From positions 1,305 to 65,304 of the forward strand of contig CAXYEO010000026.1 of NCBI GenBank assembly GCA_964276085.1: DNA of 64,000 bases, written 5' to 3'. The notes beneath the pieces are model-generated. The model saw only the letters and a program-made list of their open reading frames with translations, was not told the origin of the DNA and did not search any database. This stretch comes from an uncultured Thalassobaculaceae bacterium. Its GTDB lineage: Bacteria > Pseudomonadota > Alphaproteobacteria > Thalassobaculales > Thalassobaculaceae. Below, one piece after another: positions 1 to 44,240 of this stretch. How positions within the stretch are numbered: position 1 is the stretch's first letter; the number at the start of each line of letters is the position of its first letter. A program made the position numbers and the translations under genes.

Positions 1-931
1 CCAACGCTCTCTGCTACCACCTCTAAATAATTCCCTTAAGGTGCTCAAAATAGTTTCTTTTTTCTCTTCGGACACTAAAGCGAGACCAAGATCGCTGGCT
101 CCTCTCTCCTCCAGTAAAGGAAGAAAGCCTAATGCGGTCATTGCTTTGATCCAATGCCGATGATCCACCTGAAACACCATTGGCTTTCCATCTTTATCAT
201 CGAAACTCGCTGCTATACCGGGTAATTCTCTTGTTCCGTTTATTCGAGCGCCAACTATAGGGTTTTCATTCCGCCACATCGCTGTTGTCATCGTCCACCC
301 CATCAGACGCACAATGCCGCCAACGAGTGAGGTCTCAACCTTTTGACCAATCCCAGTATTTTTGGCATGGTATAAAGCCGCTAGAAGCCCACCGAAACGT
401 AAGCATAGCACAAGACTCATCCGCAACAGAAACTACGCCGGTACGCATGGCTTCTCCCGGTCCTGCGTATGCCTCACTTATTCCCCCCAGGGCTTGTCCA
501 ACAGCGTCAGTCCCAGGCAAATCTGAATGTGGACCTAATTGGCCATAACCAGATACTGAAACATAGACTAAAGCTGGATTTATTTTTTTTAATTCTTCAT
601 AACCGAAACCGTTTTTTTCAGCCGCTCCTGGACGAAAGTTTTGACCAAATATATCTGCTGTCTCAACAAGTCTATGAAGGATTTCTTGCCCTTCTTCCGA
701 CTTGAGGTTTAGAGTAATACTTTTGACCCCTCTGTTATTAGTCTCAAAAAAAGAACTAATATCACCGCGAAGCTCCCCGGCTGTTCTAGAGCCATCCCCA
801 ACGCCAGGAACTTCAACTTTTATAACTTCTGCTCCTAGGTCAGCCATCATCATATAAGGTACTGTTCCAGCTTGCGCTGTGGAGCATGTCACTGCTCTGA
901 CACCATTTAATGGACCTACTTTCTCGGCCAT
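1..931 (-). pseudogene. Family III (CaiB/BaiF) CoA-transferase with the reading frame broken near 394; the 3' part runs off the window start
   Basis: ORF 335..931 begins MAEKVGPLNGVRAVTCSTAQAGTVPYMMMADLGAEVIKVE, a typical family III N-terminus, with a GAAGGAAAG RBS upstream. It reads ...VADESCAMLTF and then loses similarity. The next frame from ~393 down to base 1 gives GGLLAALYHAKNTGIGQKVETSLVGG..., the conserved D-x9-G(I/L)LAAL block, with no stop before the edge. One extra base around 394 explains the break. Confidence 0.65.
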
Positions 932-5741: not shown

Positions 5742-6460
5742 ATGGTCCGCATCAGAAATACAATAAAAGAAAAATTGAATTCAGGAAACTTGGCCATTGG
5801 TATTGGGATATGACAGGCCAGGACGATGGATATAGACACAGCAGTACAAATCAGTGTTACTGCCCAAGAAGTAAGGATAACAACTCTAGTCCGCGTTCCT
5901 GACTTTCAACATTTCCATGCAAGTTGGGTACTGGGTGGAGGGAAGCAAGGTTTTGTTGTCCCCCATGTGGGTACCAAAGAAATAGCAAAAAAAATAGTCG
6001 CTCAATGCAAATATCCACCAATCGGACATCGTTCTGTTACAGGCGCTCAACCCATGTTAGATTTTCAAATCTATCCAATGGGAGAGGCCACGCAAGCAGT
6101 TAACTCAGCAACATTCCTAGTCATAATATTAGAAACTCCTCTGATTATTTTTAATGCCCATGAAATTGCTGCTATACCGGCGTGGATGCATTGCTAATCG
6201 GCACCAATGATCTTTGCATGGAAATGGGACTACCAGGTCAATTGGGTCATCCTGATATCGTAGAAGCGTATAAAAAACCATCGCAGCATGCAAAAAATAT
6301 AATAAGCATGCAGGAATGGGAAGGAATATATGAACCCAATCTTATGGATAAGTATATTAATATGGGAATTAAAATGATTCTTGGAGGAAACAATCTTAGC
6401 TTGATGATAAGCGACGGAAAGGACCAAACTTTTAAAATTCGAACTAATTTTACTGGCTAA
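5742..6460 (+). pseudogene. HpcH/HpaI (2-keto-3-deoxy-acid) aldolase family gene with several lesions
   Basis: AAGGAAG RBS followed by ATG 5742 gives MVRIRNTIKEKLNSGNLAIGIGI, then an in-frame TGA at 5811..5813. The same frame continues QARTMDIDTAVQ...LVRVPDF...CKYPPIGHRSV. The usual ~25-aa G-F-D...D-x-EH segment between QART and MDID is missing. The frame shifts at ~6179..6181: AAIP then VDALLIGTNDLCMEMGLPG in the next frame. Confidence 0.7.
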
Positions 6461-7680: not shown

Positions 7681-7727
7681 TTAATTCGTTGGCATAAGAC
7701 TTGCTTTGTCATTCGCAAGGAGAAATT

Positions 7728-8537
7728 ATGTCGTCATCTAGGATATTTTTTTTATTAGTTACTCTAATAATAATCAACTTCAGGGTAGTCGCCGAAACGA
7801 CTATTGATAGAGATATAGCAAAGTTGTGTGCCCGGGCTATCCATCCTGTAGAAAAGTCCCTTAATTTACCAAAAAATATCTTACGCGCAATCTCTCTAAA
7901 AGAAACTGGGCGTTGGCATCATAAACTGAAAGAAAGTATGCCTTGGCCTTGGACAGTTACCTCAGGAGGAGAAGGAGTTTATTACAATAGTAAACGGGAG
8001 GCTCTAAAAGCAGTACGTGAATTACAATATAAAGGGATCACCAATATCGATGTTGGTTGTATGCAAATAAACCTGCATTATCATCCGCACGCATTTAAGA
8101 ACCTAAAAGACGCATTCAACCCACAACTAAACGCGGGGTACGCGGGAGATTTTTTAAGTCAACTGTTTGAAGATCATGGCTCTTGGCAACAGGCGATAGA
8201 GCACTACCATTCAAATAACAAGAAAAGAGGAAAAAGGTACCGCCTAGCCGTAGAAAAACTACAAAGAATAGACAGCGTATTTTTTAGAAATGATGTCAAA
8301 TCAAACGGTCAAAATATTTGGTTAGCTAAACAAAAAATATTAAAACACAATCTCTACGAGGAAAAAGAAACAAGGAAAAATAGAGTTCAAGGATCCAAGC
8401 AGCACCGGATAAAAGAGAACCAAAGGCTCCAACAAGCTTTCAGTAAAAGGAAGGAAAAAGTTTTACAAAAGTGGAAGAAAATGATGAACCAGAGGAAACA
8501 GAAACTATCGCCCCAAAAGCCAACACATCAGAGCTAA
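7728..8537 (+). CDS. Lytic transglycosylase (SLT domain) with a basic K/R/Q-rich C-terminal tail
   Basis: AAGGAG lies 5 nt upstream of ATG 7728. There is an N-terminal anchor/signal MSSSRIFFLLVTLIIINFRVVA. SLT blocks are ISLKETGRW, PWPWTV, IDVGCMQINLHYH and HYHS. The last ~80 aa are lysine/arginine/glutamine-rich. Confidence 0.75.
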   Translation: MSSSRIFFLLVTLIIINFRVVAETTIDRDIAKLCARAIHPVEKSLNLPKNILRAISLKETGRWHHKLKESMPWPWTVTSGGEGVYYNSKREALKAVRELQYKGITNIDVGCMQINLHYHPHAFKNLKDAFNPQLNAGYAGDFLSQLFEDHGSWQQAIEHYHSNNKKRGKRYRLAVEKLQRIDSVFFRNDVKSNGQNIWLAKQKILKHNLYEEKETRKNRVQGSKQHRIKENQRLQQAFSKRKEKVLQKWKKMMNQRKQKLSPQKPTHQS

Positions 8538-12071: not shown

Positions 12072-13601
12072 TTAACCGTGCACATAATGCATTAGAGAAA
12101 GCGCCACATCAGGAAAAGCCAATACTGTGACAACACCTAGCGCCTGTAAAATTACAAAAGGAATAATACCTTTATAGATAGCCTGAATTTTAATTTCTCT
12201 CGGGGCGATACCTTTCATATAGAACAATGCAAAGCCAAACGGCGGCGTGAGAAAAGATGTTTGTAAGTTAACCGCCAAAAGTATGATGAACCAAAATTTT
12301 ATATCTTCCTTAGCTATATGATCACCAAAATCCAAACCGGCAACTAATGGCGTGAATACCGGCAGAACAATCAATGTGATTTCTAGCCAGTCAAGAAAGA
12401 ACCCAAGAAAAAAGACGATAGTCATAATTAGAATAAGCATTCCCCATGCATCTAATCCCGCCTTTTCGACTATAAGGTGTTCGACAACATCATCACCACC
12501 AAGTGATCTGTACACATAGGCGAAACATGTTGCGCTTATAACGATAAAGAAAATCATTGAAACAGTTTTAGCAGACGCATGGCATACCTGAACAAGCGTC
12601 CCTCCTCCTAACCGTCCATTTGCTATTGCCAAAAGCGTAGCACCAAAAGCACCGACCGCTCCCGCCTCCGACGGAGTAGCCCAACCTAACAAAATTGATC
12701 CCTTAATTAAAGAAATCAAAAATACTGGGGGCAAAAAGCTACGTGCGATTAATGGGCCCATTTCATTTCTAGGAACGTTTAATAAGTTCGCAGGGAGTGG
12801 TGGCGCCATATCCGGTTTTATAGCTGATATAGTGGCCACAAATATTAGATAGAACGCGGCTAAGGTGAGACCTGGCACAACGGCTGCCATAAACACATTA
12901 CCAACCGAAATCGCCATTAGGTCTGCCATAATAATCAACATTATACTTGGCGGTATCAGTATACCCAGCGTACCAGACGCAGCTATAACGCCACATGAGA
13001 GCGAGTGGCTATACCCTTGCCGCATCATTGTCGGTAATGCCAGGGCCGTCATCATTGTCACAGACGCACCTATAATTCCAGTCATGGCAGCGAGGATTGT
13101 ACCCATTACGGTAACAGCAAGAGCCAGCGCTCCCGGTACACGCTTAAGAAGGACTTGAACGCAGTATAGCAAATCATTTGCTATACCGCTTCTCTCCATC
13201 ATCACGCCCATAAACACGAAAGCAGGGACAGCAACTAAAACAAGGTTCTCAGCAGCTTGCCCCCATATTCTAGGAATAAAATTGAAAAATTCAATTAAAG
13301 AAAACGAATCTAGAAAGAATCCTAGCAACCCAAAAAGCATTGCCAGACCACCCAATATAAAAGCTACGGGATATCCTGAAAACAATAAGAGTGCCAAAGT
13401 GAGAAACATCACCATCGAAATATATTCTTGGCCAACCCAAACCAACGCTTCACCGCGAGAAATCTCTTCCTCGATCATCAAGGATCCTGACAGCGTGTAG
13501 GCACCGAAGGTACACAAAACCAGGACTAACGCCAGCAAACTAAACATTAGTATCGCGACTTTTGCCTCGCCAGACCGTGTCTCTACGCTTGATTCATCCA
13601 T
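12072..13601 (-). CDS. TRAP transporter large permease (DctM family), paralogue 2
   Basis: 509-aa polytopic ORF with DctM blocks: GYPVAFILGG, LVAVPAFVFMGVMMERSGIANDL, GTLGILIPPSIMLII, TPSEAGAVGAFGA, FLTPPFGFALFYMKGIAP. Confidence 0.9.
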   Translation of the reverse strand: MDESSVETRSGEAKVAILMFSLLALVLVLCTFGAYTLSGSLMIEEEISRGEALVWVGQEYISMVMFLTLALLLFSGYPVAFILGGLAMLFGLLGFFLDSFSLIEFFNFIPRIWGQAAENLVLVAVPAFVFMGVMMERSGIANDLLYCVQVLLKRVPGALALAVTVMGTILAAMTGIIGASVTMMTALALPTMMRQGYSHSLSCGVIAASGTLGILIPPSIMLIIMADLMAISVGNVFMAAVVPGLTLAAFYLIFVATISAIKPDMAPPLPANLLNVPRNEMGPLIARSFLPPVFLISLIKGSILLGWATPSEAGAVGAFGATLLAIANGRLGGGTLVQVCHASAKTVSMIFFIVISATCFAYVYRSLGGDDVVEHLIVEKAGLDAWGMLILIMTIVFFLGFFLDWLEITLIVLPVFTPLVAGLDFGDHIAKEDIKFWFIILLAVNLQTSFLTPPFGFALFYMKGIAPREIKIQAIYKGIIPFVILQALGVVTVLAFPDVALSLMHYVHG

Positions 13602-13837: not shown

Positions 13838-15367
13838 CTAATCATATGCCGCATGCATTAACCAAAGTGCAACCTCGGGAAATGCCATAACCGTTACGAC
13901 GCCTAAAGCTTGAAGAATCACAAATGGAATTATACCCTTATAAATTGACTGTATACGTATCTCCTTGGGTGCTATCCCTTTCATGTAAAACAGTGCAAAC
14001 CCAAACGGCGGCGTTAGAAACGAAGTTTGTAAATTAACCGCTAAGAGAATTATAAACCAAAACTTTATATCAGCTTTTGCTAGGTGGTCACCAAAATCCA
14101 TCTGTATGATTAATGGCGTGAAAACAGGTAACACAATTAACGTTATTTCTAGAAAGTCTAAAAAGAAGCCAAGAAAGAATACAATTACCATTACGAGGAT
14201 TAACATCCCCCAAGGCCCTAGTCCTGCTTTTTCAATAATGAGTGTTTCTACGACGTCGTCACCGCCCAATGATCTATAAACATAAGCAAAACAAGTAGCA
14301 CTTATGACAATGAAGAAGATCATAGACACTGTTCGAGCTGCGGTATGACAAACTGATACTAAAGTATTCTTACTCAATCGACCATTGGCTGCCGCCAATA
14401 ATGTCGCACCAAAGGCGCCAACTGCTCCAGCTTCGGATGGTGTAGCAAAGCCAAAAAGGATAGAACCTTTGATTAACGTGATGAGAAAAACTGGAGGCAA
14501 AAAACTCCTTAGAACTAGTGGAAGCATTTCTCCTTTCGGAATATTCAACAAGTTTGCAGGCAAAGGTGGAGCCAGGCTGGGCTTAACAGCGGCTAATGTT
14601 GCTACATAAATTAAATAAAAGGTGGCTAATGTAAGTCCAGGAACCACCGCTGCCATAAATACATTACCAACCGAAATAGCCATTAAATCAGCCATTATGA
14701 TAAGCATAATACTAGGAGGAATAAGTATTCCCAAAGTACCTGATGCCGCAATAACCCCTGTGGCAAGAGCATGACTGTACCCCTGCCGCATCATCGTTGG
14801 CAATGCGAGCGCGGTCATCATAGTAACTGAAGCACCAATAATACCTGTCATGGCAGCTAATATTGTCCCCATAACTGTAACCGCTAGAGCAAGAGCGCCC
14901 GGCACCCTGCGCAACAAGACTTGAACGCAGTAAAGTAGGTCATTTGCAATTCCGCTGCGCTCCAGCATAACCCCCATGTAAACGAATGCAGGTACTGCAA
15001 CCAGGACAAGATTCTCTGCCGCCATCCCCCAAATTCTGGGAACAAAGTTGAAAAATTCAATCAGTGAGAACATATCCAGGTAATAACCAATTACCCCAAA
15101 TAGCATTGATAAACCACCGAGAATAAATGCAACCGGATATCCAGAAAAAAGTAACATAGCGAGCGTCAAAAACATTGCTATAGAGATGTATTCTCGGGTC
15201 ACAGAGTAGATAGCCTCCGCACGGCCAATCTCTTCCAAAGCCATTAGATGACCAGATTCATATACTACAGCAATCGCGCCAATTGTAACAATCACGCCAA
15301 CAAAAAATAATAATAGCATAGCAACTTTGTGCTCGGACGATTTATTAGCGCTAACCGGTTGGCTCAT
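13838..15367 (-). CDS. TRAP transporter large permease (DctM family), paralogue 1
   Basis: 509-aa ORF that aligns without gaps to 12072..13601. Most residues are identical after about residue 60. It carries the same DctM blocks. Confidence 0.9.
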   Translation of the reverse strand: MSQPVSANKSSEHKVAMLLLFFVGVIVTIGAIAVVYESGHLMALEEIGRAEAIYSVTREYISIAMFLTLAMLLFSGYPVAFILGGLSMLFGVIGYYLDMFSLIEFFNFVPRIWGMAAENLVLVAVPAFVYMGVMLERSGIANDLLYCVQVLLRRVPGALALAVTVMGTILAAMTGIIGASVTMMTALALPTMMRQGYSHALATGVIAASGTLGILIPPSIMLIIMADLMAISVGNVFMAAVVPGLTLATFYLIYVATLAAVKPSLAPPLPANLLNIPKGEMLPLVLRSFLPPVFLITLIKGSILFGFATPSEAGAVGAFGATLLAAANGRLSKNTLVSVCHTAARTVSMIFFIVISATCFAYVYRSLGGDDVVETLIIEKAGLGPWGMLILVMVIVFFLGFFLDFLEITLIVLPVFTPLIIQMDFGDHLAKADIKFWFIILLAVNLQTSFLTPPFGFALFYMKGIAPKEIRIQSIYKGIIPFVILQALGVVTVMAFPEVALWLMHAAYD

Positions 15368-16944: not shown

Positions 16945-18071
16945 TCAATTTTTGAATTCAAGGCGAATAGTTTCATTATTCTGTCCAATTTCTGGAACAC
17001 TGAGTATATCGACTGCTTCCCCTTTGACGGTGGATGGGGGCGCCATGACGTCTATTCTTCCCTGTGGTGTATCCACTTGTATCTTATTCAAAGCAGGGTG
17101 ATTAAGAACGTCTTCAATCGTATTTACTGCTCCAAATGCTATTTTGGCGTCTATCAATCGTCGGCGCACCTCATCACGTGTCAAACGTGATAAAATTTCT
17201 TCTATTTCACTATCTAAAAATTTTCTATTTGCCAAACGTGCAACATTATCGATTACTTTTTTGTTGTTAGCTAAACCAGGTTTTTGAAGAACCTGATCAC
17301 ATAATCTGCTCCATTCCCTTTGATTTTGTACCGCAATTAAAATTAATTCCTCATTAGCGCACTCATACGCACCGTAAGGTGCGATTGCTGGATGGTGTAA
17401 ACCGATACGTTGTTCACTCAATTCTCCATATGCCTGATGCAATAACCATGGCGACAACCATTCGACCATTCCACCGAACATGGAGGTTTTAATTGTAGAG
17501 CCTTCTCCTGTTCTGCCACGTTTTATTAACGCCTCCAACACGGCAATTTTGGAGTACATACCTGCAGCGATATCGCAAACAGAAGCCCCCACCCGCCCCA
17601 TGACCTCTGGAGACCCTGTTACAGAAATCAAGCCGCTCTCTCCCTGAACAAGAAAGTCATATGCCTTCATATCGGAATATTCACCCTCTTCACCATAACC
17701 GGAGATATCGACGGTTATTAACTTCGGATAACGAACCCGTAAATCCTCTGAACCAAAACCAGCACGCTCTGCAGCACCTGGCGCTAGATTTTGGACAAAA
17801 ACGTCTGCCTTAGCTAAAATACGCTCTAATAAGTGATGCGTCCTCAGGGTTTTTTTATATCTAGAACTAGGCTTTCCTTGCCTCTATTCAGCCAAACAAA
17901 GTACGCAGATTGGCCCATTACCTGGTGGTCGTATCCGCGCGCAAAGTCCCCGTCTGCTCTTTCAATTTTAATTACTCTCGCTCCTGCGTCTGCAAGACGA
18001 CTAGTGCAATAAGGCGCTGCCACGGCCTGCTCCAACGCGACAACTAAAATACCTTCTAGTGGCTTGCTCAT
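16945..18071 (-). pseudogene. Family III (CaiB/Frc-like) CoA-transferase split by a frameshift in an A7 tract
   Basis: ATG 18071 (AAGGA RBS) gives MSKPLEGILVVALEQAVAAPYCTSRLADAGARVIKIE...NRGKESLVLDIKKP then a stop. The -1 frame continues KKTLRTHHLLERILAKADVFVQNLAPGAAERAGFG...ISGYGEEGEYSDMKAYDFLVQGESGL...CDIAAGMYSKIAVLEAL... through to 16945. The total length plus 1 nt gives about 375 aa, normal for the family. Confidence 0.7.
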
Positions 18072-18081
18072 TGATAAATCC

Positions 18082-19257
18082 TTAATAAGACCGAGGCAAT
18101 CCAAGAACATGCTCAGCTAAATACCCGAGTATCAAATTGGTTGAGATTGGCGCTATTCTGTATAATCGAGCTTCCCGGTATTTACGTTCCACATCATATT
18201 CTTCCGCAAAAGCAAAACCACCAAACGTTTGCATGCATGTATCTCCTGCCTCCCAAGCTGCGTCTGCGGCGAGCATTTTGGCCATATTTGACTCCGCTCC
18301 ACAAGGTTCACCAGCCTCGAATAACTCTGCTGCTCTTTTAGACATAAGCGCAGCCGCTTCAGTATCAGCATAGGCTTTTGCTATTGGGAACTGGACACCT
18401 TGATTTTTGCCGATTGGACGACCGAAGACTTCTCTTTCATTAGCGTAGTCAACGGCTTTTTTTAGAAACCAACGTGCATCACCAAGCGATTCGTGGCTTA
18501 TAAGGATTCTCTCTGCATTCATCCCATCAAGAATATATCTAAATCCCTTGCCCTCTTCTCCAACTAAACTATCCGCTGGAATCTCAAGTTCATCAAAAAA
18601 TATTTGGGTAGTAGAGTGGTTGATCATCGTTCGAATTGGACTAATATCCATTCCCTTTCCGAGACTTTCCTTCATATCTATCAAAAAGACAGATAATCCA
18701 TCGGTTCGTTTCTGCACCTCCTCTATGGGGGTAGTCCTCGCAAGCAATAGCATTAAATCTGAATGCTCTGCCCGTGAAGTCCATATTTTTTGCCCATTAA
18801 CCACATATTTATCATTACCCCTCTTCACAGCGGTTGTGCTTAAAGAGAGCGTGTCTGTTCCACTAGATGGCTCTGATACTCCGAAAGCCTGTAGCCGTAA
18901 TTCACCCGAAGCTATTTTCGGAAGGAACTTCTTTTTTTGTTCCTCGCTTCCATGACGCAAAACTGTCCCCATGATATACATCTGAGCATGGCAGGCCCCG
19001 CCGTTACATCCAGACTTGTGTATTTCCTCTAGAACGGCGGCCGCAGCCGAAATAGGCAACCCGCTGCCCCCATACTCTTCTGGCACTAAAACGGCTAAAA
19101 ATCCAGCATCAGTGAGCGCCTGAACAAACTCCGTAGGATATTCCCTATCGCGGTCTTTTTCACGCCAGTACTCGCCTGGATAGTTCTCACATAAAGCCGC
19201 AACTGATCTACGAATTTCCCCTATCACCTCTTGCATTTCAGTTGATGCATCCACCAT
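18082..19257 (-). CDS. Acyl-CoA dehydrogenase
   Basis: 391-aa ORF with ACAD blocks: FGVSEPSSGTD, VNGQKIWTS, RPIGKNQGVQFPIAKAY, QTFGGFAFAEEYDVERKYREARLYRIAP. Confidence 0.9.
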   Translation of the reverse strand: MVDASTEMQEVIGEIRRSVAALCENYPGEYWREKDRDREYPTEFVQALTDAGFLAVLVPEEYGGSGLPISAAAAVLEEIHKSGCNGGACHAQMYIMGTVLRHGSEEQKKKFLPKIASGELRLQAFGVSEPSSGTDTLSLSTTAVKRGNDKYVVNGQKIWTSRAEHSDLMLLLARTTPIEEVQKRTDGLSVFLIDMKESLGKGMDISPIRTMINHSTTQIFFDELEIPADSLVGEEGKGFRYILDGMNAERILISHESLGDARWFLKKAVDYANEREVFGRPIGKNQGVQFPIAKAYADTEAAALMSKRAAELFEAGEPCGAESNMAKMLAADAAWEAGDTCMQTFGGFAFAEEYDVERKYREARLYRIAPISTNLILGYLAEHVLGLPRSY

Positions 19258-23449: not shown

Positions 23450-26400
23450 TTAGGAGAGCATATTAACGCTCAAACCTATTCCCTTGGAAGGAGATATATT
23501 TTTGATAAGACCAACTGCTAAAGCGTTATTATTAGTCGGCACAATAGAGTTACCCGTCGTAGCTAAATCTTGTATCAGCAGGTATTTTTCAATAAACTTG
23601 ATTGCGTAGTCGGTATTTTTTAACGGCTTAAGAAACTGCGTTTCTACCTCCGGTTCTCTATTCAATCTATTGTTCAGAATTGATAACTCTATGTTCAGAG
23701 CGACGCGCTTTGATTTCATTTTAGAAAACGCACTATCAACCAAAAATTTTGCGTCAGTGATGAGGTTTATTCGATCCGTGACTGATGATACCTCGACACT
23801 GGAACCTCCTCCCGAACCTGTTGCTGTTGCCGCTGTGTTAGCCGTGAAAGTGTATGCTCCATCCGATACATTAGTTATTAAAAATGTATTATTTAAATCT
23901 ACGCCATTGACGTTAGACCCGGCGATGGATCTAAACGAGACAAAGTCATCTTCCTTAAACGTATGATTAGCCTGCGTTACTGTGACCGTAGCACTGTCTT
24001 TTACGGTAGCAAAAGGCGATGATCCAAGGGTTGTGATAGATGCACCCTCTCCATTTAAAACGGCAAAATAATGGTCTGAGAATTTACCATCTAGTACTTC
24101 TTTGATGGTATCTTGCGCCTCGATCGTTACTTTTTTTCCAAGTGTATCTATTTGAACCACGATGTCGCTGGCGAAATCTGCTATAAGGTTCTTTCCATCC
24201 TTTTCAGCACTTGCAAATATCCCGTCTAATTCTGACCTCAATTTTCTTATTTCTGTATCAATTGCTCCTTGTGGATCGGCTACATTGGCGTAAAAATCAA
24301 ATTTAACTTTGTCAGTCTGAAGGTTTTTGCGGACCGTTTCCGCGTTTTTACTAAGAGTATTAGCCCCGGTTATGACATTAGCCGCGTTTCCTGAGTTAAG
24401 GGCCGAAGGTAAAAGTGAAGCAAGCCTTGTACTGTCGCTCAAACCATATGGGCCACTTGAATCTATATCTCTTAACTCTGAATTAATGGCCAGCTGCTCT
24501 GAACCATCCGGACTTGGTCTAATATTATAAGTGTCTTTTAATCTTACAGAAGATCCTCCACCAGCGCCGTTCCCTGTAGCTTGGACGGCGATAGTGCCAC
24601 CGCCTTTTGTCCCACTACTAGCAGTGCTGCCAGCGTTAAATGTAAAGTGATTGGCATTCGTAATACCTGTAATTGTGAAGGTACCATTCAAGGTCAACCC
24701 ACCTACTGCTGAACCTCCACTAAAAGTTACGGTATCATTAACATTGAAGCCATGCCCTTCAATTTCAGCACTTACAGTGGAACTACCCGCTGTCGTCGTC
24801 AATGGGTCTGTCAAAGTGTCAGCAGTTATTGTGTAATGGTTTGAGTCAGTTACAGTCACCAAAAACGTTCTTTGGTCCCCGATGCCTACTCGTAGTCCGT
24901 TTATTGGCGAGCTTGCAACATTATCAAACGTGACATACTCCCCTGTGGAAAAGCCATGACTATTGTGTTCAACGGTGACTGTAGAGCTCCCCGAGGTCGT
25001 TGTGAAAGGGTTAGAGCCAAGTTTATCCAAGTCAAGAAGATTATCTAGAGTCTCCGTCGGTGTCCCGGTGAAAGACACTGAACCTCCACCTCCACTAGCA
25101 GAGCTGGACGCGGAGCTACCAGCTGTAATCGTGTAAGTATTTGCAGAAACACTCGCAATAGTGAAGGTACTATTAACATCTAATCCTCCAACTGCTGATG
25201 CACCACTAAAGGTGATAGAGTCACCAGCTATAAATTGGTGGGCGGCGTCGGTGACAGTTACCGTCGCACTTCCATTATTTGTCGCAAATGGATTATTGGC
25301 TAATGTCCCTGTATCAGTTCCTTTGATTGTGCCTGGGGCCCCAAGTAGACTTACAATATCTGCTCTCAAATCTATATATTCAGCCTGAGTTTCACTTGTG
25401 ATAGTTTGATTAGCCAGCGTTGCTATCTTTCTCAAGTCTTCATCAACTTTTGATACTCGTAAAATTGAATCATCGATTGATGCTTGTCCTTTTGCTAGAC
25501 CAGATGTGTTGAGAGAGGCACCCCAATTTACTTTTCCCGTTTCACTTGCGAACGTGGAATTATTAACAGAGATTATACGGTTAGCATTCGAAAACTCTGT
25601 GTTAGAATCGTTTAGAAACCCTTTGGCAGTGTCAGTATCTGCCAGAGCATCACTTAAACTTGCTGATGCAACAGTTGAGGCTGCACTTGCTATTTTTGTT
25701 AAAAATGTAGCTAAATCTTTATTTGAAGCGCTAATACTACTTGCTGTGGTATCAACGATAGATGCTAGCTCATCTAGAGTGAAGCCAACGGCCCCACCTC
25801 CTCCACTTACTGAGCTAGTAGCATTGCTTTGTGCTGTGATTGTGTACGCATTCGAACTCGTAATCCCACTGACCCTGAATGTTTTATCAAGATCTAGACC
25901 CCCTACTGAGGATCCGTTGCTGTAGGCAACAACATCACCAACAGATAGTCCATGACCATTATGAGTAACAGTTACATCCGGACTACCGTTGCTTGTAGTG
26001 AATGGATTGTTGCCAAGGCTATGGCCATAACCAATAGTATTGCCACCTCCAATAGCCGCAGTGCCTTTGGAGGAAAAAGTAATTGTATATGAATTTTCAG
26101 CAATATCGGAGATTTCAAATGTACCGTTTAAATTCAAACCTCCAACTGTCGATGCATTGCTTAATGTGACATGATCACCAATCGCAAATTTATGGCCTGA
26201 ATGAGCGATTGTGACTTGATCACTGGCATTGACCGAAACAGAACTGCCGCCGCCACTCCCAACCTTTATTTGCGACCCCGCTGTAATCGTATAGGAATTA
26301 GAAGAGACACCAGCCACCTGGAAGTTGCCGTTGAGGCTCACACCATCGATCGATGCACCTCCACTGAAATTAACCGTCTCTCCATTGCTAAACGGATGCC

Positions 26401-28489
26401 CTGTGTGGGCCACCGTTACCTGATCACTGGCATTTACCGAAACAGAACTGCCGCCACCACTCCCAGCCGTAGCTTGCGACGACGCTGTTATCGTATAGGA
26501 ATTAGAAGAGACATCAGCCACCTGGAAGTCGCCATTGAGGCTCACACCATCGATCGATGCACCTCCACTGAAATTAACCGTCTCTCCATTGCTAAACGGA
26601 TGTCCTGTGTGGGCCACCGTGACCTGGTCGCTTGCATTAACCGTAACGGAACCTCCACCACCAGTAGCTGCCGCACTTCCGGGTGACCCTAACAAAAATT
26701 CATATGAATTCGTTGACTGATTCTGTACCGTGAAAGAACTATTCAAGCTCTGCCCGCCAACAGTAGATGCACCGCTGAAAATTACATTATCTCCGTCACT
26801 AAATGGATGCCCTGCGTGGTTCACCTGCACTCTATTCGTCGCGAACGTTCCAGAAGAACCACCACCATTTTCGTTGGTCGCTGGAGGAGAACCCAAATCA
26901 ACACCCACATCAATATGAATTACATTACTGTTTCGAACCGAGTGGACCGTATACGTTCCGTTTAGATCTGCGCCGAACGCATCACTAGTGCCTGAAACCG
27001 TAATCTTATCTCCCGCTTGAAGTCCATGGTCTTCAATTCTCAATTTAAGTATCGCTGTATTGTCACTGTCGCGAGCAGGAGTGGCATCAGCAAACCATTC
27101 CCAAGGATTCCCCGGAAGATCACCACCTTTAATGGTAAATGGATTAGAGCCCAGCGTTCCATCCTGAACGGTAAATGGATTAGAGCCCAGTGTCCCGCTT
27201 TGAACAGTAAATGGATTAGAACCAAGGGTTCCTGATTGCACCGTGATCGGGTTATTTCCAAGAGACCCAGACTGATATGCATAATCAAGCTTCTTCGCCT
27301 CATAAGAATTTGGCTGCCCCGCATCCACGGTGCCTCCACCCGGTTTAAATAAATTAATATTCTTTCCAGTATTTGGATCGGTAAACCTAGCAGTATGGTT
27401 AACAAGATCGGGTATTCTTGCCGCAAGCTCGGCAAAACTTGCTTTTTGAGAGTCAAAATTTGCCTGTATCTCCTCAACGCGCATGTTAGCTACAAGCTCG
27501 TCTAATTGCTTTAATATAGGTTCCAACTCATCAATAGCCGCTTTCGCAGCAAAATTAGCCCCTGCTATATTTTTAAGTTTTTTAACCGCACTCGTTTGAA
27601 TAGCGATTTCTTTGTCGTTTTCTCCACTCTCACTTGTATCCATGTGACTGGGTAAATTAAATTGCAAAGTACGAAGGTTATTTAAGCGAGTATTTATGAT
27701 TGATAAGGTAGACTCCGCATTTGTCACTTGCGATTTCGCAACCTCTACCGCTTGTATATCATTCCTTATTTTTGCTTGATTATCTATACTCAGCTCAGCC
27801 TCCCCAACATTAATGGCGGCTTTTTTCACATCGAATTTAGATTCAATTAATTGTAGTTGTCTCTCAAGCGATTGGGACGCTATCTGCGGAGGTAGTCTTA
27901 AAGCTGTAGTCGCTATCGTTCTCAACTGCATATTACCAAGAAGACCAGCAGTACTTGTTATAGAATTTATGTTTCTTAGAAAGAAAAATGCTTTAGCGAT
28001 TTCACCGTTTCCTCCACCCACATCAAGTTCGAACCTGTTCTGCAGATACTTGTCAATAAGATTTTGCTGGCTACTAGCCGTTGTTAAACTGCGTAATTCA
28101 CGTTTCTCAAAATTCACAAAATTTGCTAATTCGGCAAATCGAGGATCGTTCAATCTATTAGCAAATGAATTCAGATCGCTTGTATCACTTTTAAGGACAG
28201 CCTTGATTTTTCCCCCATTATTAATTTCTGACCCGAGGTCAAAGGCAGTCAAAAGTATTTGAAGGGATTTCCTATCTTTTACTAACTCATCGACATCCTT
28301 GAACCCAGAAACTTTATTTTTAAAGGTCTCGATATCCTTTTGAACATCTTTACGATTAAAGAAACTCTCTCGAAGCTTGCCCTCATTTTTACTAATTTGT
28401 TTAAAGAGCGCCAGTGATGATATAGTATTCTGGGCTGCCCCGCCCACATTACCACCTAAAATACCTAGTGCTGATGCACCATTAAGCAT
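23450..28489 (-). CDS. Giant (1,679 aa) DUF1217-like N-terminal domain, helical-segment and repeat-module protein of unknown function
   Basis: Uninterrupted 5,040-nt ORF with a GGAGA RBS 7 nt upstream of the ATG. Residues 25-225 have DUF1217-type blocks (SLQILLTAFDLGSEINNGGKIKAVLKSD, SFANRLNDPRFAELANF, TALRLPPQIASQSLERQLQLI). These are followed by helical N/Q-rich segments, 12-aa repeats and ten ~70-aa modules. There is no signal peptide. Confidence 0.9.
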   Translation of the reverse strand: MLNGASALGILGGNVGGAAQNTISSLALFKQISKNEGKLRESFFNRKDVQKDIETFKNKVSGFKDVDELVKDRKSLQILLTAFDLGSEINNGGKIKAVLKSDTSDLNSFANRLNDPRFAELANFVNFEKRELRSLTTASSQQNLIDKYLQNRFELDVGGGNGEIAKAFFFLRNINSITSTAGLLGNMQLRTIATTALRLPPQIASQSLERQLQLIESKFDVKKAAINVGEAELSIDNQAKIRNDIQAVEVAKSQVTNAESTLSIINTRLNNLRTLQFNLPSHMDTSESGENDKEIAIQTSAVKKLKNIAGANFAAKAAIDELEPILKQLDELVANMRVEEIQANFDSQKASFAELAARIPDLVNHTARFTDPNTGKNINLFKPGGGTVDAGQPNSYEAKKLDYAYQSGSLGNNPITVQSGTLGSNPFTVQSGTLGSNPFTVQDGTLGSNPFTIKGGDLPGNPWEWFADATPARDSDNTAILKLRIEDHGLQAGDKITVSGTSDAFGADLNGTYTVHSVRNSNVIHIDVGVDLGSPPATNENGGGSSGTFATNRVQVNHAGHPFSDGDNVIFSGASTVGGQSLNSSFTVQNQSTNSYEFLLGSPGSAAATGGGGSVTVNASDQVTVAHTGHPFSNGETVNFSGGASIDGVSLNGDFQVADVSSNSYTITASSQATAGSGGGSSVSVNASDQVTVAHTGHPFSNGETVNFSGGASIDGVSLNGNFQVAGVSSNSYTITAGSQIKVGSGGGSSVSVNASDQVTIAHSGHKFAIGDHVTLSNASTVGGLNLNGTFEISDIAENSYTITFSSKGTAAIGGGNTIGYGHSLGNNPFTTSNGSPDVTVTHNGHGLSVGDVVAYSNGSSVGGLDLDKTFRVSGITSSNAYTITAQSNATSSVSGGGGAVGFTLDELASIVDTTASSISASNKDLATFLTKIASAASTVASASLSDALADTDTAKGFLNDSNTEFSNANRIISVNNSTFASETGKVNWGASLNTSGLAKGQASIDDSILRVSKVDEDLRKIATLANQTITSETQAEYIDLRADIVSLLGAPGTIKGTDTGTLANNPFATNNGSATVTVTDAAHQFIAGDSITFSGASAVGGLDVNSTFTIASVSANTYTITAGSSASSSASGGGGSVSFTGTPTETLDNLLDLDKLGSNPFTTTSGSSTVTVEHNSHGFSTGEYVTFDNVASSPINGLRVGIGDQRTFLVTVTDSNHYTITADTLTDPLTTTAGSSTVSAEIEGHGFNVNDTVTFSGGSAVGGLTLNGTFTITGITNANHFTFNAGSTASSGTKGGGTIAVQATGNGAGGGSSVRLKDTYNIRPSPDGSEQLAINSELRDIDSSGPYGLSDSTRLASLLPSALNSGNAANVITGANTLSKNAETVRKNLQTDKVKFDFYANVADPQGAIDTEIRKLRSELDGIFASAEKDGKNLIADFASDIVVQIDTLGKKVTIEAQDTIKEVLDGKFSDHYFAVLNGEGASITTLGSSPFATVKDSATVTVTQANHTFKEDDFVSFRSIAGSNVNGVDLNNTFLITNVSDGAYTFTANTAATATGSGGGSSVEVSSVTDRINLITDAKFLVDSAFSKMKSKRVALNIELSILNNRLNREPEVETQFLKPLKNTDYAIKFIEKYLLIQDLATTGNSIVPTNNNALAVGLIKNISPSKGIGLSVNMLS
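23840..27058 (-). repeat. Array of ten ~70-aa coding modules (consensus GSNPFTT-x3-GS-x-VTV-x-H-x-GH-x-F-x2-GD-x-V-x-FSG-x-S-x-VGGL-x-LNG-x-F-x-V-x2-V-x3-SYTITA-...-GGGGS), interrupted by two helical spacers
   Basis: Modules are centred on residues 485, 558, 626, 694, 762, 843, 1082, 1176, 1245 and 1508 of the giant ORF. Each has the (H/A)-x-(G/S/A/N)-H-x-(F/L)...(G/D/N)(D/E)-x-(V/I)...LN motif. Confidence 0.8.
26240..26647 (-). repeat. Two nearly identical tandem 204-bp (68-aa) units inside the module array
   Basis: Residues 615-682 and 683-750 differ at only a handful of positions. The DNA is near-identical with a 204-bp period: GATCACTGGCATT recurs at 26218 and 26422. Similarity fades into the flanking units. 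Confidence 0.9.
27092..27271 (-). repeat. Five tandem 36-bp (12-aa) units: SGSLGNNPITVQ / SGTLGSNPFTVQ x2 / DGTLGSNPFTIK / GGDLPGNPWEWF
   Basis: Residues 407-466 of the giant ORF. The DNA shows GGTAAATGGATTAGAGCCCAG repeated in phase. Confidence 0.85.
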
Positions 28490-28536
28490 ATACTGTCTCC
28501 GCTTCTGCAGAATCCCAACGACCTGCTGCGCAGGAC

Positions 28537-28553
28537 ATGCAAATGTCGGGCCA
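28537..28553 (-). promoter_or_regulatory. Candidate sigma-54 (-24/-12) promoter of the giant gene
   Basis: Minus strand reads C-TGGCCCG-ACAT-TTGCA-T against consensus YTGGCACGR-N3-TTGCW, with GG and GC spaced exactly as in the consensus. It lies 48 nt upstream of the ATG at 28489. Confidence 0.6.
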
Positions 28554-28649
28554 GTTCATTTTGAACCTTATTTTAAACGTAAGACTAATTAGAAATATTA
28601 TCAAGTAAAACTAACTAAATACTCAGTACTCTAAAATGAAAGAAAAAAA

Positions 28650-30434
28650 ATGTTCACAACTAGACCGGAACTTATTGGTACTTTTGGTGTTGTCACTACT
28701 ACCCATTGGCTCGGTTCTGCCGTAGGCATGTCAATACTTGAAAAGGGAGGAAATGCTTTTGATGCGGCCGTCGCAACCGGGTTCTCCTTGCAAGTTTTCG
28801 AACCCCATTTAAATGGTCCAGGCGGCGATATGCCAGTGATTTTCCAAACTGCGGGTGCTCAAGCCCCAGAAGTCTTATGCGGTCAGGGCACGATCCCAGC
28901 AGCAGCCTCTCTTCAAAAATTTGGAGAACTCGAGTTAGACCTAATACCAGGTAGTGGTTTACTATGTGCCGTGGTACCTGGAGCGTTTGATGCGTGGATG
29001 CTTTTGTTAAGGGATCATGGAACTATGACCTTATCCGAAGTTTTAGGCCCTGCTATATCGTACGCGCGTGACGGTTATCCTGTTGTGCCCCGAATATCCG
29101 CAACCATAGACACTGTGCGTGAGTTGTTCGAAACAGAATGGAAAACATCTGCTGATATTTATCTACCCGGAGGAAAGCCACCCGCACCTGGTACAATCTT
29201 CAAAAACCCAGCGATGGCTCGTACATATGAGAAAATCGTTAGGGAATCAGAGGGAGTTAAAGGCAACCGAGAGAAGCAAATAGAACATGCGAGGAGCATC
29301 TGGTATCGTGGTTGGGTTGCAGAGGAAATAGACAAATTCTGCCGTACGCAGGAAGTTATGGACGTCTCAGGTCGACGCCATAAAGGTTTGTTAACTGGCG
29401 AGGATATGGCCTCTTGGCAAGCAACCTATGATACCCCTTTGACTTATAATTATGGGGATTACACCGTATGTAAATGCGGTCCCTGGAGCCAGGGTCCTGT
29501 TCTACTTCAACAATTAGCGATTTTAGATGGGATGGGAGTAAGCTCTATGGATCCAACTGGACCAGACTTCGTCCACGCAACCGTAGAAGCTGCAAAATTA
29601 GCGTTTGCTGATCGCGAGGCATATTATGGAGACCCCGACTTTATAGATGTTCCGATGGATAAATTATTAAGTTCCGAATACAATGCGGAACGAAGAGCTT
29701 TAATAACGCAACAGGCTTCTGACAAATTGATCCCAGGAAAAATTGATGGATATTTAGGGTCCATAGATAAAGCAATTGATGACCGATCGGGCCTGACAGT
29801 AGAAGCGTCTATGGGGGTTGGTGAACCGACGGTTGCTAAAACTGGTGTTTCGACTGGCGATACGGTTCATCTAGATATTATCGATAGATTTGGGAATATG
29901 GTTTCTTGCACTCCCAGTGGCGGATGGCTGCAAAGTTCGCCTATAATCCCAGAACTTGGTTTCTGCCTAGGCAATAGAGGACAAATGTTTTGGTTAGATG
30001 AGAATTCGCCATCCGCTTTAGTACCGGGAAAACGACCTCGAACAACGCTGTCGCCCTCGCTTGCTCTAAAGAACGGAAAACCCTACATGGTTTTTGGCAC
30101 ACCCGGTGGTGACCAACAAGATCAATGGTCGACGCTTATGTTTTTGCACCACGTAGACCATGGCATGAACCTTCAAGAGGCTATTGATTGCCCAGCATTT
30201 CATACAGACCACTTTCCAAGCTCTTTCTGGCCGCGTTCCTATCAGCCTAAAAAAGTTGTTTTAGAGGATCAGTTTTCTGAATATACGGTAACAGAACTGA
30301 GACGTCGTGGCCACGACGTAGAAGTCAGTGATCCATGGTCTGAAGGTAGATTGACAGGAGCATCACGTGATGGAGGGGTTTTAAAAGCCGCAGCAAATGC
30401 CCGAGGCATGCAGGGATACGCGGCGGGAAGGTAA
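28650..30434 (+). CDS. Gamma-glutamyltransferase family protein
   Basis: 594-aa ORF with GGNAFDAAVATGFSLQVFEPHLNGPGGD, a nucleophile region STGDTVHLDIIDRFGNMVSCTPSGG, and GTPGGDQQDQ near the C-terminus. Confidence 0.85.
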   Translation: MFTTRPELIGTFGVVTTTHWLGSAVGMSILEKGGNAFDAAVATGFSLQVFEPHLNGPGGDMPVIFQTAGAQAPEVLCGQGTIPAAASLQKFGELELDLIPGSGLLCAVVPGAFDAWMLLLRDHGTMTLSEVLGPAISYARDGYPVVPRISATIDTVRELFETEWKTSADIYLPGGKPPAPGTIFKNPAMARTYEKIVRESEGVKGNREKQIEHARSIWYRGWVAEEIDKFCRTQEVMDVSGRRHKGLLTGEDMASWQATYDTPLTYNYGDYTVCKCGPWSQGPVLLQQLAILDGMGVSSMDPTGPDFVHATVEAAKLAFADREAYYGDPDFIDVPMDKLLSSEYNAERRALITQQASDKLIPGKIDGYLGSIDKAIDDRSGLTVEASMGVGEPTVAKTGVSTGDTVHLDIIDRFGNMVSCTPSGGWLQSSPIIPELGFCLGNRGQMFWLDENSPSALVPGKRPRTTLSPSLALKNGKPYMVFGTPGGDQQDQWSTLMFLHHVDHGMNLQEAIDCPAFHTDHFPSSFWPRSYQPKKVVLEDQFSEYTVTELRRRGHDVEVSDPWSEGRLTGASRDGGVLKAAANARGMQGYAAGR

Positions 30435-30517: not shown

Positions 30518-31015
30518 ATGAAGAAAATATTAATAATATTTATTCTACCATTAGTCCTTCTTCTTGGGGCTGGGGCCGGAGCATTTTTCTTTGGTTTAAT
30601 TCCAGGCTTTGGTGCTGAAACGAATGTGGCAGCTGAGGCACAATTGTCCGAAAAGAGGGCAGCTGAAAGAAAAATTGTTCCAGAAGCTTTCAATAAAGCA
30701 TCGCTAATGTCCCTGGAATTCTGGATGGATGAATTTGTTATTAATTTACAAACACAGCGACGGAACCCAGTATTTCTTTTGTTTAGTATGGCATTGATCC
30801 TCTCTGGCGAAGAGGCAAAGGCAAAAGTAAAACTACTGGAACCACGCATAAGAGATTCGGTTAATATATTTCTCAGCAGCCTAACCCCGGAACAGTTGTC
30901 CGGCTATGATGGAATTAGAATGTTAAGACAGGAAATTTGGAATAGATCAAATGAAATAATCGAAGATTCAACCTCTTTGGAGAATATCCAAATACTAAAA
31001 TTAACTATCAAATGA
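30518..31015 (+). CDS. fliL: FliL-like flagellar basal-body-associated protein
   Basis: 165-aa ORF with a single N-terminal TM (ILIIFILPLVLLLGAGAGAFFF). FVINLQTQRRNPVFLLFSMALIL...LEPRIRDSVNIFLSSLTPEQLSGYDGIRMLRQEIWNRSNEII matches the FliL pattern (f-v-NL...PriRD...L-G-G...Lr-Ei). Confidence 0.65.
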   Translation: MKKILIIFILPLVLLLGAGAGAFFFGLIPGFGAETNVAAEAQLSEKRAAERKIVPEAFNKASLMSLEFWMDEFVINLQTQRRNPVFLLFSMALILSGEEAKAKVKLLEPRIRDSVNIFLSSLTPEQLSGYDGIRMLRQEIWNRSNEIIEDSTSLENIQILKLTIK

Positions 31016-39743: not shown

Positions 39744-39980
39744 CTATTCGGGACCTTTTTCTATCAAAAACTCGATGTCATCCTCCCGCTCTTGCATAGC
39801 TATAAGCTTATGTCCTTTTGAATTACAAAAGTGCTTAAAATCAAGAGGTGAGGCCGGGTCTGTAGATAATATACGTATTTGTGAGCCCGTGCTTAAACCC
39901 TTCATAGCTTTACGAGCCTTCAAAACTGGCAACGGGCATTTGAGCCCTGTTGCATCAACCAAGATTATATCATCATTCAT
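39744..39980 (-). CDS. TusA/SirA-like sulfurtransferase
   Basis: 78-aa ORF with the hallmark DATGLKCPLPVLKARKAMK (CPxP). Confidence 0.8.
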   Translation of the reverse strand: MNDDIILVDATGLKCPLPVLKARKAMKGLSTGSQIRILSTDPASPLDFKHFCNSKGHKLIAMQEREDDIEFLIEKGPE

Positions 39981-40240
39981 TTTATTATATCTTTCAGAAT
40001 AGACGCACGGGGGTCAAAGTTCAATAATAAGCCAGTTTAATGCCAGTCTAAATATTCATCTTTTATATAACGAAAAAATTTTATTAAATCAGGTGAATAA
40101 GCTTATTAAACTACGATAGAAAAATCGCAGGTAAATTTTATTATATCCCATGAAAACACTTCTTTCTTTTTATAAAGCTCACCAAAAAAGAAGTATTCCC
40201 TTTTTTTGACAAATTATAAGATTGATGTTTTTACAAATAA

Positions 40241-43113: not shown

Positions 43114-44240
43114 ATGATTAAATTATCCAAGATATCAACAATTCTTATTAGCATAACTCTTTTTCCAATGTGCTTAAAAGCACAAGAAACCTATATTCCT
43201 ATCCTTGTACCTGTAACTGGCTTTCTTTCTCTAGAGGGAACAGCTCAACGAAATGGCGCGATACAAGCCCTAGACAAAGCACCTAGTAGTTTAAACATAA
43301 AGTATGAAGTTTCGGATACGTCCACATCGCCAGAGGTAGCTGTAACAGCACTACATAGAGCTCTAAGCCGAGGACAACCAGTAGCGATTGCTGCACCAAT
43401 ATTTGGAACGCAAATGCTAGCAATGTTGCCAGTGGCGAAAAGAGCCAGCGTTCCACTCATTACGGTATCAGGTACAGCCAAACTAACAGAATTGGATAAT
43501 CCTTTCATTTTTCGTTTTTTCCCTGGTGATGCAATAGTAAAGGTTGCACACGCTAGATACGTGAGTGAAATTTTAGGTCGAAGCGCCCTGCGCTTCTCTA
43601 CCAAACTACGGCGTACGGTCAGAGTGGATACTCCCATCTATCTAAGATTTTGAAAGAAAACGGCACACCGCTTGTCTATGAAGAAGCACTAGCACCATCC
43701 GTGAAGGATATGTTACCCGCATTGACTAAGCTTAGAGCCTCAAAACCTGATGTGATTTTATTACACCTACATTCTGCACCAACTGCACTGGCCATCCGTC
43801 AAGCACGCAATAACGGAATTGAATTACCGATTGTAGCTGGTTCGGCGATGCATCAACCATCTACCGCAAAACTATTAAAGACTGATCAGTTGAGAGGTGT
43901 GTGTGCTGAGACAGCAGCATCGCCAATATCAGAATCAAATAGCGAAATAATCAGTTTTACAACCGAATACAGAAACCGTTTTTCAAAAGAGCCAGATGCA
44001 TTCGCCTTAGCCCAATATGATGGCATGAATATGGTCATTGCAGCTTTAAAAAGTGGTGCTAAATCTGCGATCGATGTTCGAAACTGGCTATCTGTAAATA
44101 CATTTAAAGGCCTTGCTATGACTTATAAATCTGATGGCAAAGGAAATATGGCACACGATGCAACAATCGTTTGTTACAATGGAAAAACTCGCACTCCAAA
44201 GATCATAAAAAGATACATAAATGTGGACGGTGTATTTTAA
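43114..44240 (+). pseudogene. Liv-type (branched-chain/hydrophobic amino acid) ABC substrate-binding protein, frameshifted near 43577
   Basis: ORF 43114..43653 (signal peptide, IPILVPVTGFLSLEGTAQRNG, PVAIAAPIFGTQ) loses similarity after ...YVSEILG. The frame of ORF 43650..44240 read back to 43569 gives KRPALLYQTTAYGQSGYSHLSKILKENGTPLVYEE..., the expected continuation. The length plus 1 nt gives about 375 aa. Confidence 0.7.

Follow-up and report, generated by a model that had tools for sequence, protein, structure and literature searches.

Gene content and organization of the locus

The window, by which we mean the whole 64-kb stretch of DNA analysed here, has a GC content of 42% and carries mostly metabolic and transport genes (TRAP, TctC and ABC transporters, dehydratases and CoA-transferases). 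The genomes closest to it are a Rhodospirillaceae MAG and SAR116 single-cell genomes, from which we take its source to be a SAR116 (Puniceispirillales) bacterium. Three neighboring genes form the setting of the element described below:

23450-28489, minus strand: giant gene (1679 aa), with an N-terminal DUF1217 domain, beta-barrel repeats and a conserved C-terminal segment of about 110 aa
28650-30434, plus strand: gamma-glutamyltranspeptidase gene (ggt), divergent from the giant gene, its position conserved in all relatives
30518-31015, plus strand: gene for a FliL-domain protein of 165 aa, downstream of ggt

The DUF1217 domain of the giant protein matches PDB entry 2o8s from Agrobacterium (E=3.6e-20) and is followed by numerous small beta-barrel repeats, each 75-90 aa long (E1_FCCH / End_beta_barrel). 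The orthologues are 1342 to 1679 aa long, apparently because they differ in how many of these repeats they carry. Both the DUF1217 N-terminus and the final ~110 residues (…FLKPLKNTDYAIKFIEKYLL…PTNNNALA…GLSVN) are highly conserved. We considered a flagellin-like C-terminus and rejected it, as neither Flagellin_C nor the flagellar rod and hook families were detected in the giant protein and PDB offered no support. An exact-protein look-up of the GGT encoded in the window found nothing on record.

Gene order is constant among the relatives, with the FliL-like gene and ggt on one strand and the DUF1217 gene divergent from them, followed by genes for Asp-DH and TctC. The trio of DUF1217 gene, divergent ggt and 165-aa FliL-domain gene is kept from SAR116 to the Thalassobaculales (L036 4476-10495, Thalassobaculum salexigens), and the FliL-like family is present in Nisaea as well. 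Such conservation of neighborhood suggests a functional link among the three genes.

The preliminary description of this DNA saw a flagellar flavor in the DUF1217 and FliL domains. In its favor, DUF1217 genes of Brucella lie between motA and flgF in a flagellar locus, flagellar genes are enriched in SAR116, and the SAR116 genome HIMB100 has 41 COG-N genes. Against it, all three genes (DUF1217, ggt and FliL-like) have metabolic neighbors, both here and in Thalassobaculum. We looked in SAR116 flagellar clusters for paralogues of DUF1217 or FliL, and only orthologues appeared among the best 120 of 8000 word-sharing candidates. The flagellar link of the giant gene and of the motif in front of it is thus weak, drawn as it is from gene-family associations (DUF1217, FliL domain) and not from context. 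Proteins of ~870 aa with four DUF1217 repeats occur in a distant MAG (L033 3806-6490 and L034 3881-6472); their genes adjoin UbiA and FAD-oxidase genes, not flagellar genes, so DUF1217 is not confined to flagellar loci.

A -24/-12-like motif in front of the giant gene

Sigma-54 promoters share the -24/-12 consensus YTGGCACGR-N3-TTGCW, for which E. coli glnAp2 is the archetype. On the minus strand, positions 28553 to 28537 read TGGCCCgacatTTGCAT, one mismatch away from TGGCAC-N5-TTGCW. In the slightly longer stretch 28554 to 28537 (CTGGCCCGACATTTGCAT), GG at 28552-28551 and GC at 28540-28539 stand at the canonical spacing of 10 bp, and with this spacing held fixed the sequence TGGCCCgacatTTGCA departs from the consensus at a single position. 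The sole core mismatch is A to C at -22; agreement extends to 10 of 11 core positions, and the extended YTGGCACGR is matched as well. The wider minus-strand context is ...ggttcaaaatgaaCTGGCCCGACATTTGCATgtCCTGCgcaGCAGGtcgttgggattCTGCAGAAGCGGAGacagtatATG. The ATG of the giant gene (28489, minus strand) lies 47 nt past the 3’ end of the motif, and the start of the divergent ggt at 28650 leaves 96 bp of AT-rich DNA upstream of it. The letters of the minus strand bear out the preliminary description, which had reported one mismatch, correct GG-GC spacing and a ribosome binding site before the giant gene.

The features of the intergenic region, in order from the giant gene toward ggt, are as follows:

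28501-28510, minus strand: leader box CTGCAGAAGC, followed by the Shine-Dalgarno sequence GGAG (28500-28497)
28522-28534, minus strand: inverted repeat IR2, CCTGC-gca-GCAGG, with the predicted start at its centre
28527, minus strand: predicted sigma-54 start, an A 12 nt after C-12
28537-28542, minus strand: candidate -12 element TTGCAT, with TTGC and T-10 invariant; the six positions between the elements vary
28548-28553, minus strand: candidate -24 element TGGCCC, with TGGCC identical in all 15 distinct versions (25 loci)
28553-28567, minus strand: inverted repeat IR1, GGTTCA-aaa-TGAACT, directly adjoining the -24 element
28576-28604, minus strand: sigma-70-like promoter P1, TTGATA (28604-28599), N17, TACGTT (28581-28576)
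28572-28601, plus strand: sigma-70-like promoter of ggt, TTTAAA-N18-TATTAT

Sigma-54 transcripts are expected to begin 11-13 nt past the GC. Taking the C of GC as -12, transcription by sigma-54 holoenzyme is predicted to give a leader of 38 nt, and the predicted +1 is A in 14 of the 15 distinct versions. The leader had previously been described as containing the hairpin CCTGC-GCA-GCAGG together with a start near 28526, two proposals that are mutually incompatible. The predicted start at 28527 is the last loop base of this repeat, so its 5’ arm would be left untranscribed and the hairpin would not be whole in a sigma-54 transcript.

Matches to TGGCAC-N5-TTGCW are no more abundant in the window than chance predicts, with 3 found and 2.1 expected at up to one mismatch, and 31 found and 31.7 expected at up to two. 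Since the count by itself is not above chance, the weight of the motif comes from its placement and its conservation.

Conservation of the motif among relatives

We collected 29 orthologous loci with upstream sequence from GTDB genomes, from contigs encoding homologues and from a metagenome scan. They span protein identities from 92% down to about 46% and GC contents from 42% to 61%. The pattern TGGCC[C/T]-N5-TTGC is found in 27 of the 29, all of them SAR116 loci, at a constant distance from the start codon, and is missing from two more distant relatives, Thalassobaculum salexigens and the metagenomic locus L028. Base counts were taken over 25 of the 27 motif-bearing loci, which represent 15 distinct versions. 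Across these versions T-26, G-25, G-24, C-23 and C-22 are invariant, as are T-15, T-14, G-13 and C-12; T-10 and G-30, the latter within IR1, are likewise invariant. Variation is seen at each position from -21 to -16, and the elements keep a constant spacing. The three lineages with 61% GC have the motif too, in intergenic DNA that does not otherwise align with that of the window. As a control, the region between ggt and fliL was compared over the same set of genomes; its mean column identity is 53%, with few invariant columns.

Conserved elements around a free spacer are therefore what the orthologous upstream regions contain. Two short blocks at fixed spacing, with unconstrained letters between them, are the footprint that would be expected of sigma-54 contacts. 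The -24/-12 reading put forward in the preliminary description is thus backed chiefly by contact positions frozen in all 15 versions at a fixed spacing.

In one metagenomic lineage (L016 2562-5754), transposase and integrase genes lie beside and inside the DUF1217 gene, which they split; the motif upstream is intact.

A sigma-70-like promoter and two inverted repeats surround the motif

P1 has the form expected of a sigma-70-type promoter, with -35 and -10 hexamers, a spacer within 16-18 nt and a position that is kept. Every lineage has TTGnnn-N17-TAnnn[T/G] with the end of the -10 hexamer 21-28 nt before the T of the -24 element, agreeing at 8-10 of 12 positions. The second clade has TTGCCT-N17-TATTAT, and the 61% GC lineages have TTGACA-N17 followed by TATATG (perfect) or TAGATG. 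The window’s own copy, which scores 8 of 12, was not flagged by a strict promoter scan. Its predicted start, near 28569, falls just 5’ of IR1. In the window the hexamers of P1 and of the ggt promoter stand back to back (28572-28604), each -10 overlapping the other’s -35.

IR1 keeps its place while its letters differ by lineage (GTTC/GAAC, CCCCA/TGGGG, GCTC/GAGC, ACCCT/GGGGT, GGTCG/CGACC). Tested against an anchored null, it gave P values of 0.03-0.39 per lineage and of about 0.01 when these were combined. The outer pairs of IR2 co-vary between clades (GA..TC, AT..AT, T..A), and other forms of this repeat are GTGTTGC/GCAGCAC, with one G-U pair, and TTCG/CGAA. The leader box is kept as CTGCA[GA]AAGC in all SAR116 lineages, including those of 61% GC.

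The two relatives that lack the motif retain the rest of this arrangement. Thalassobaculum salexigens has TTGTGA-N17-TATAGT, followed by GGTCG-agaaa-CGACC and CGGGC-gttact-GCCCG, and L028 keeps P1 and the hairpins as well. Because both do so without a -24/-12 motif, the sigma-70-like promoter and the hairpins appear to predate the sigma-54-like element, which seems to have been added within SAR116. The resulting layout, a sigma-70-like promoter followed by conserved hairpins with the site lying between them, is mildly unusual.

A further inverted repeat, TGGTGCA-tca-GCACTA, occupies the first codons of the giant gene (28466-28481, minus strand), and its nucleotide sequence is conserved in the low-GC lineages even at third codon positions. 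Its TGGTGCA arm equals an NtrC half-site.

Folding of the leader

Transcripts of the P1 type fold in RNAfold into one three-part shape in all lineages, in which the spacer between the -24 and -12 elements pairs with the segment after IR2. One clade pairs CGAGTTT/AAACTCG, a second CCCGAC/GTTGGG, and the high-GC lineages pair GCCCG[G/A]/[T/C]CGGGC. In the low-GC alignment, 89.6% of cells were paired, compared with 36-53% when the 3’ partners were slid by 1 to 3 columns. Three pairs had changed on both sides, compared with 1.4 in shuffles, and 32 of 500 shuffles reached the observed value. Fold energies were not better than those of shuffled sequences (z -0.1 to -1.0), and Rfam covariance models gave no match between 28380 and 28720 at E up to 10. 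A covariance model made from the leader of the low-GC lineages finds L016 alone among the distant ones. For the shorter leader predicted from the sigma-54 start, RNAalifold returned only a 6-bp hairpin, with no compensatory change.

We also considered whether P1 transcripts and transcripts from the putative sigma-54 promoter (P2, below) differ in exposure of the Shine-Dalgarno sequence. This idea was rejected, because the clades disagree in direction (unpaired probabilities of 0.17 versus 0.58, 0.09 versus 0.01, and 0.64 versus 0.64).

Sigma factor, activator and enhancer

Sigma-54 always requires an ATP-dependent activator, usually bound upstream. A Pfam scan of the 59 ORFs in the 64-kb window found no Sigma54_activat domain and no other regulator, and tblastn with E. 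coli RpoN and NtrC gave no match in the window or the fetched loci (312 kb in all). The absence of an activator or regulator gene from the 64 kb, noted at the outset, therefore holds. Activators of sigma-54 need not be encoded nearby. In the literature on rpoN, sigma-54 and flagella in SAR116 we found no mention of rpoN.

The AT-rich upstream DNA had also been expected to hold an enhancer and IHF sites, an expectation that our searches did not support. The 160-bp intergenic region (28490-28649) has no match to the IHF consensus at up to one mismatch, there is no conserved dyad upstream of P1, and the only elements conserved across clades in the AT-rich 96 bp are the sigma-70-like hexamers. Synonymous sites in the first 180 codons of ggt, scanned for conservation as a sign of an embedded enhancer, gave nothing prominent. 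The upstream space is taken by IR1 and the sigma-70-like hexamers.

One high-GC lineage carries six GGCA[A/C/T] repeats, 10-12 nt apart, some 110-170 bp upstream of the motif (L015 4640-4705). The run contains the dyad CGGCaatacGCCG and is absent in the sister lineage L018.

A second well-placed core

The core TGGC-N7-TTGC has five occurrences in the window, where 2.4 would be expected. Of these, two are intergenic, on the strand of the gene and 15-120 nt before its start codon, a placement for which 0.067 occurrences are expected (Poisson P(>=2)=0.002). Besides the motif of the giant gene, this is:

7690-7705, plus strand: second well-placed core TGGCATaagacTTGCT, 22 nt before ATG 7728

This core is separated by 10 nt from the stop codon of the gene upstream of it, which encodes a formylglutamate amidohydrolase. 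The gene that follows it (7728-8537, plus strand) encodes a secreted protein of 269 aa, and its ATG is preceded by AAGGAG. An exhaustive HMMER search recovered 4548 relatives of this protein, and 23 of 25 aligned homologues match Pfam SLT, from which we identify it as a lytic transglycosylase of the PWPWT...DVGCMQIN family. A scan of viral contigs for the gene found nothing. About 250 kb of related SAR116 DNA contain no well-placed core except the orthologues of the DUF1217-gene motif. A mechanical ORF call begins the transglycosylase gene at the TTG of the -12 element; its real start is ATG 7728.

A -24/-12-like sequence with two mismatches, TGGCATtaaacTGGCT (40030-40045, minus strand), precedes a gene for a TusA sulfurtransferase (39744-39980) by ~50 nt.

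Interpretation

On balance, and with modest confidence, we favor the view that the 17-bp element is a working sigma-54 (RpoN) -24/-12 promoter, P2, of the giant DUF1217 gene. This is the simplest reading of the alignments, since letters are frozen at exact sigma-54 contact positions in genomes that range from 42% to 61% GC. The control region would then probably be a tandem P1/P2 arrangement, with P2 as its downstream member. We envisage that sigma-54 holoenzyme would bind TGGCC (-26 to -22) and TTGC (-15 to -12) in a closed complex, and that this complex would be remodelled by an AAA+ activator encoded elsewhere in the genome. Transcription from P2 would start at A 28527 or nearby and would yield a 38-nt leader carrying the CTGCAGAAGC box and the GGAG ribosome binding site. 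The promoter would thus sit ~22 nt downstream of P1, between two inverted repeats that keep their positions while their sequences shift. Sigma-54 regulons commonly span functions of the cell exterior, peptidoglycan included, and for this reason a giant repeat protein and a lytic transglycosylase would both be fitting products.

Several observations weigh against a sigma-54 promoter. Neither rpoN nor an activator gene turned up in the window or the fetched loci, and no enhancer or IHF site was found upstream. The motif could be part of the 5’ UTR of P1 transcripts. Thalassobaculum salexigens and L028 keep P1 and the hairpins without it, and across the whole window the motif is no more frequent than chance predicts.

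The main rival explanation holds that the region is a structured 5’ UTR only, of a gene transcribed from P1, with the sigma-54-like letters kept as an RNA or protein-binding sequence and sigma-54 uninvolved. The mRNA would begin with a hairpin formed by IR1, a long stem would join GCCC and the spacer to a downstream GGG box and enclose IR2, and a third small hairpin, CUGC-AGAA-GCGG, would touch the ribosome binding site. Much in the alignments is consistent with such a leader: P1 stays in position in every lineage and reaches the perfect TTGACA-N17-TATATG in 61% GC genomes, IR1 and IR2 hold their places as their letters shift (with co-changing outer pairs in IR2 and the combined P of ~0.01 for IR1), the three-part fold recurs throughout the lineages with pairing at 89.6% of cells against 36-53% in the slid controls, and Thalassobaculum has P1 and two hairpins with no motif at all. 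A structured leader leaves unexplained, however, why TGGCC and TTGC should be frozen at exactly the sigma-54 spacing, when paired positions would be expected to co-change. Moreover, the folds are no more stable than shuffled sequences, the covariation is modest, Rfam has no match, and the covariance model reaches only L016 among the distant lineages. We therefore regard this explanation as unlikely, if still a serious contender. The same frozen letters tell against an operator, in which the repeats and conserved letters would be sites for one or more dimeric transcription factors acting on P1 as repressor or activator. Two palindromes with variable centres do flank the motif, and IR2 overlaps the region just downstream of P1; but it is the palindrome arms that change between lineages and the non-palindromic TGGCC and TTGC that do not, and no regulator gene lies nearby in any relative, which makes an operator improbable indeed.

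Conservation speaks in a similar way to the two readings to which we give least credence. In the low-GC clades GAAC precedes TGG and could serve as the -35 of an ECF-type promoter, with TC/CGT-like letters ~16 nt downstream as its -10. In the high-GC lineages, however, GAAC is replaced by GGGT, GAGC or GTGT, and the invariant letters would fall in the spacer, where conservation is not expected; on this pattern we rejected the ECF reading, which is very improbable. A chance match without function would agree with the chance-level count across the window, but it would have to account for a core that is invariant in 27 loci over deep divergence while neighboring intergenic DNA is unconserved, and it is hardly credible. 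It is also conceivable, though we think it doubtful, that the SAR116 lineage inserted a sigma-54 site between two older leader hairpins, where a parked closed complex would keep P1 transcription from passing until a distant activator fired it, the same sigma factor driving the transglycosylase gene 21 kb away. A single element would then be both a block and an inducible promoter of a giant surface-protein gene.

If the element is a sigma-54 promoter, as we favor, it resembles known members of the class in having GG and GC 10 bp apart, one core departure, conservation confined to the two elements, and a short predicted leader that begins with a purine. It differs from the consensus in having C, not A, at -22 in every relative, and from the archetype in lying downstream of a sigma-70-like promoter between two inverted repeats. 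Enteric glnAp1/glnAp2 likewise place an ordinary promoter ahead of a sigma-54 promoter, both on one strand and serving one gene, although P1 and the predicted P2 are only ~40 bp apart. IR1, at the predicted extreme 5’ end of the P1 transcript in every lineage, recalls a stabilising hairpin of the ompA type; unlike that hairpin, it has stems of only 4-7 bp.

A comparison with Caulobacter crescentus is suggested by the alphaproteobacterial host and the conserved leader, both shared with its class III/IV flagellar promoters, by the presence of DUF1217 in Brucella locus III, and by the FliL-domain gene two genes away. Class III/IV genes of Caulobacter use sigma-54 and FlbD bound at ftr sites, and flagellin leaders are bound by FlbT; sigma-54 sites in Caulobacter also read TGGCCC. 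In this species the middle and late flagellar genes are under the control of sigma-54 and FlbD. In contrast, the DUF1217 gene is no known flagellar structural gene and lies outside a flagellar cluster, and no ftr-like enhancer was found. The target is not a hook or flagellin gene, as an FlbD-type flagellar promoter would lead one to expect; its product is a DUF1217 repeat protein with metabolic neighbors. Membership of P2 in a flagellar regulon would thus be a matter of conjecture.

A sigma-54 promoter at this locus would overturn nothing that is known; if true, it would extend a known promoter class to an abundant and poorly studied marine clade. Should it be confirmed, streamlined SAR116 cells would be seen to keep activator-dependent on/off control, TGGCC-N6-TTGC would serve as a motif for finding the rest of the regulon, and the giant DUF1217 protein, perhaps with the lytic transglycosylase, would be tied to a defined signal. 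The DUF1217/ggt/FliL-like trio in Thalassobaculum also offers a culturable system for the function of DUF1217.

Other features of the window

A number of genes in the window are split or truncated (16945-18110, minus strand; 5826-6460, plus strand; 43114-44240, plus strand; 335-931, minus strand). Affected are genes for a family III CoA-transferase, for an HpcH aldolase, for a periplasmic binding protein and for another CoA-transferase. The relatives L005 and L007 have the CoA-transferase as one gene of 373-385 aa, and similar gene breaks are found in the 2.81-Mb relative L013, the giant gene itself among them. Either a long-read assembly introduced frameshift errors, or the split genes are recent pseudogenes. 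Two tandem DctM-type TRAP genes of 509 aa (12072-13601 and 13838-15367, minus strand) adjoin a DctP gene, and the DctM duplication is also present in the relatives L005, L007 and L008.
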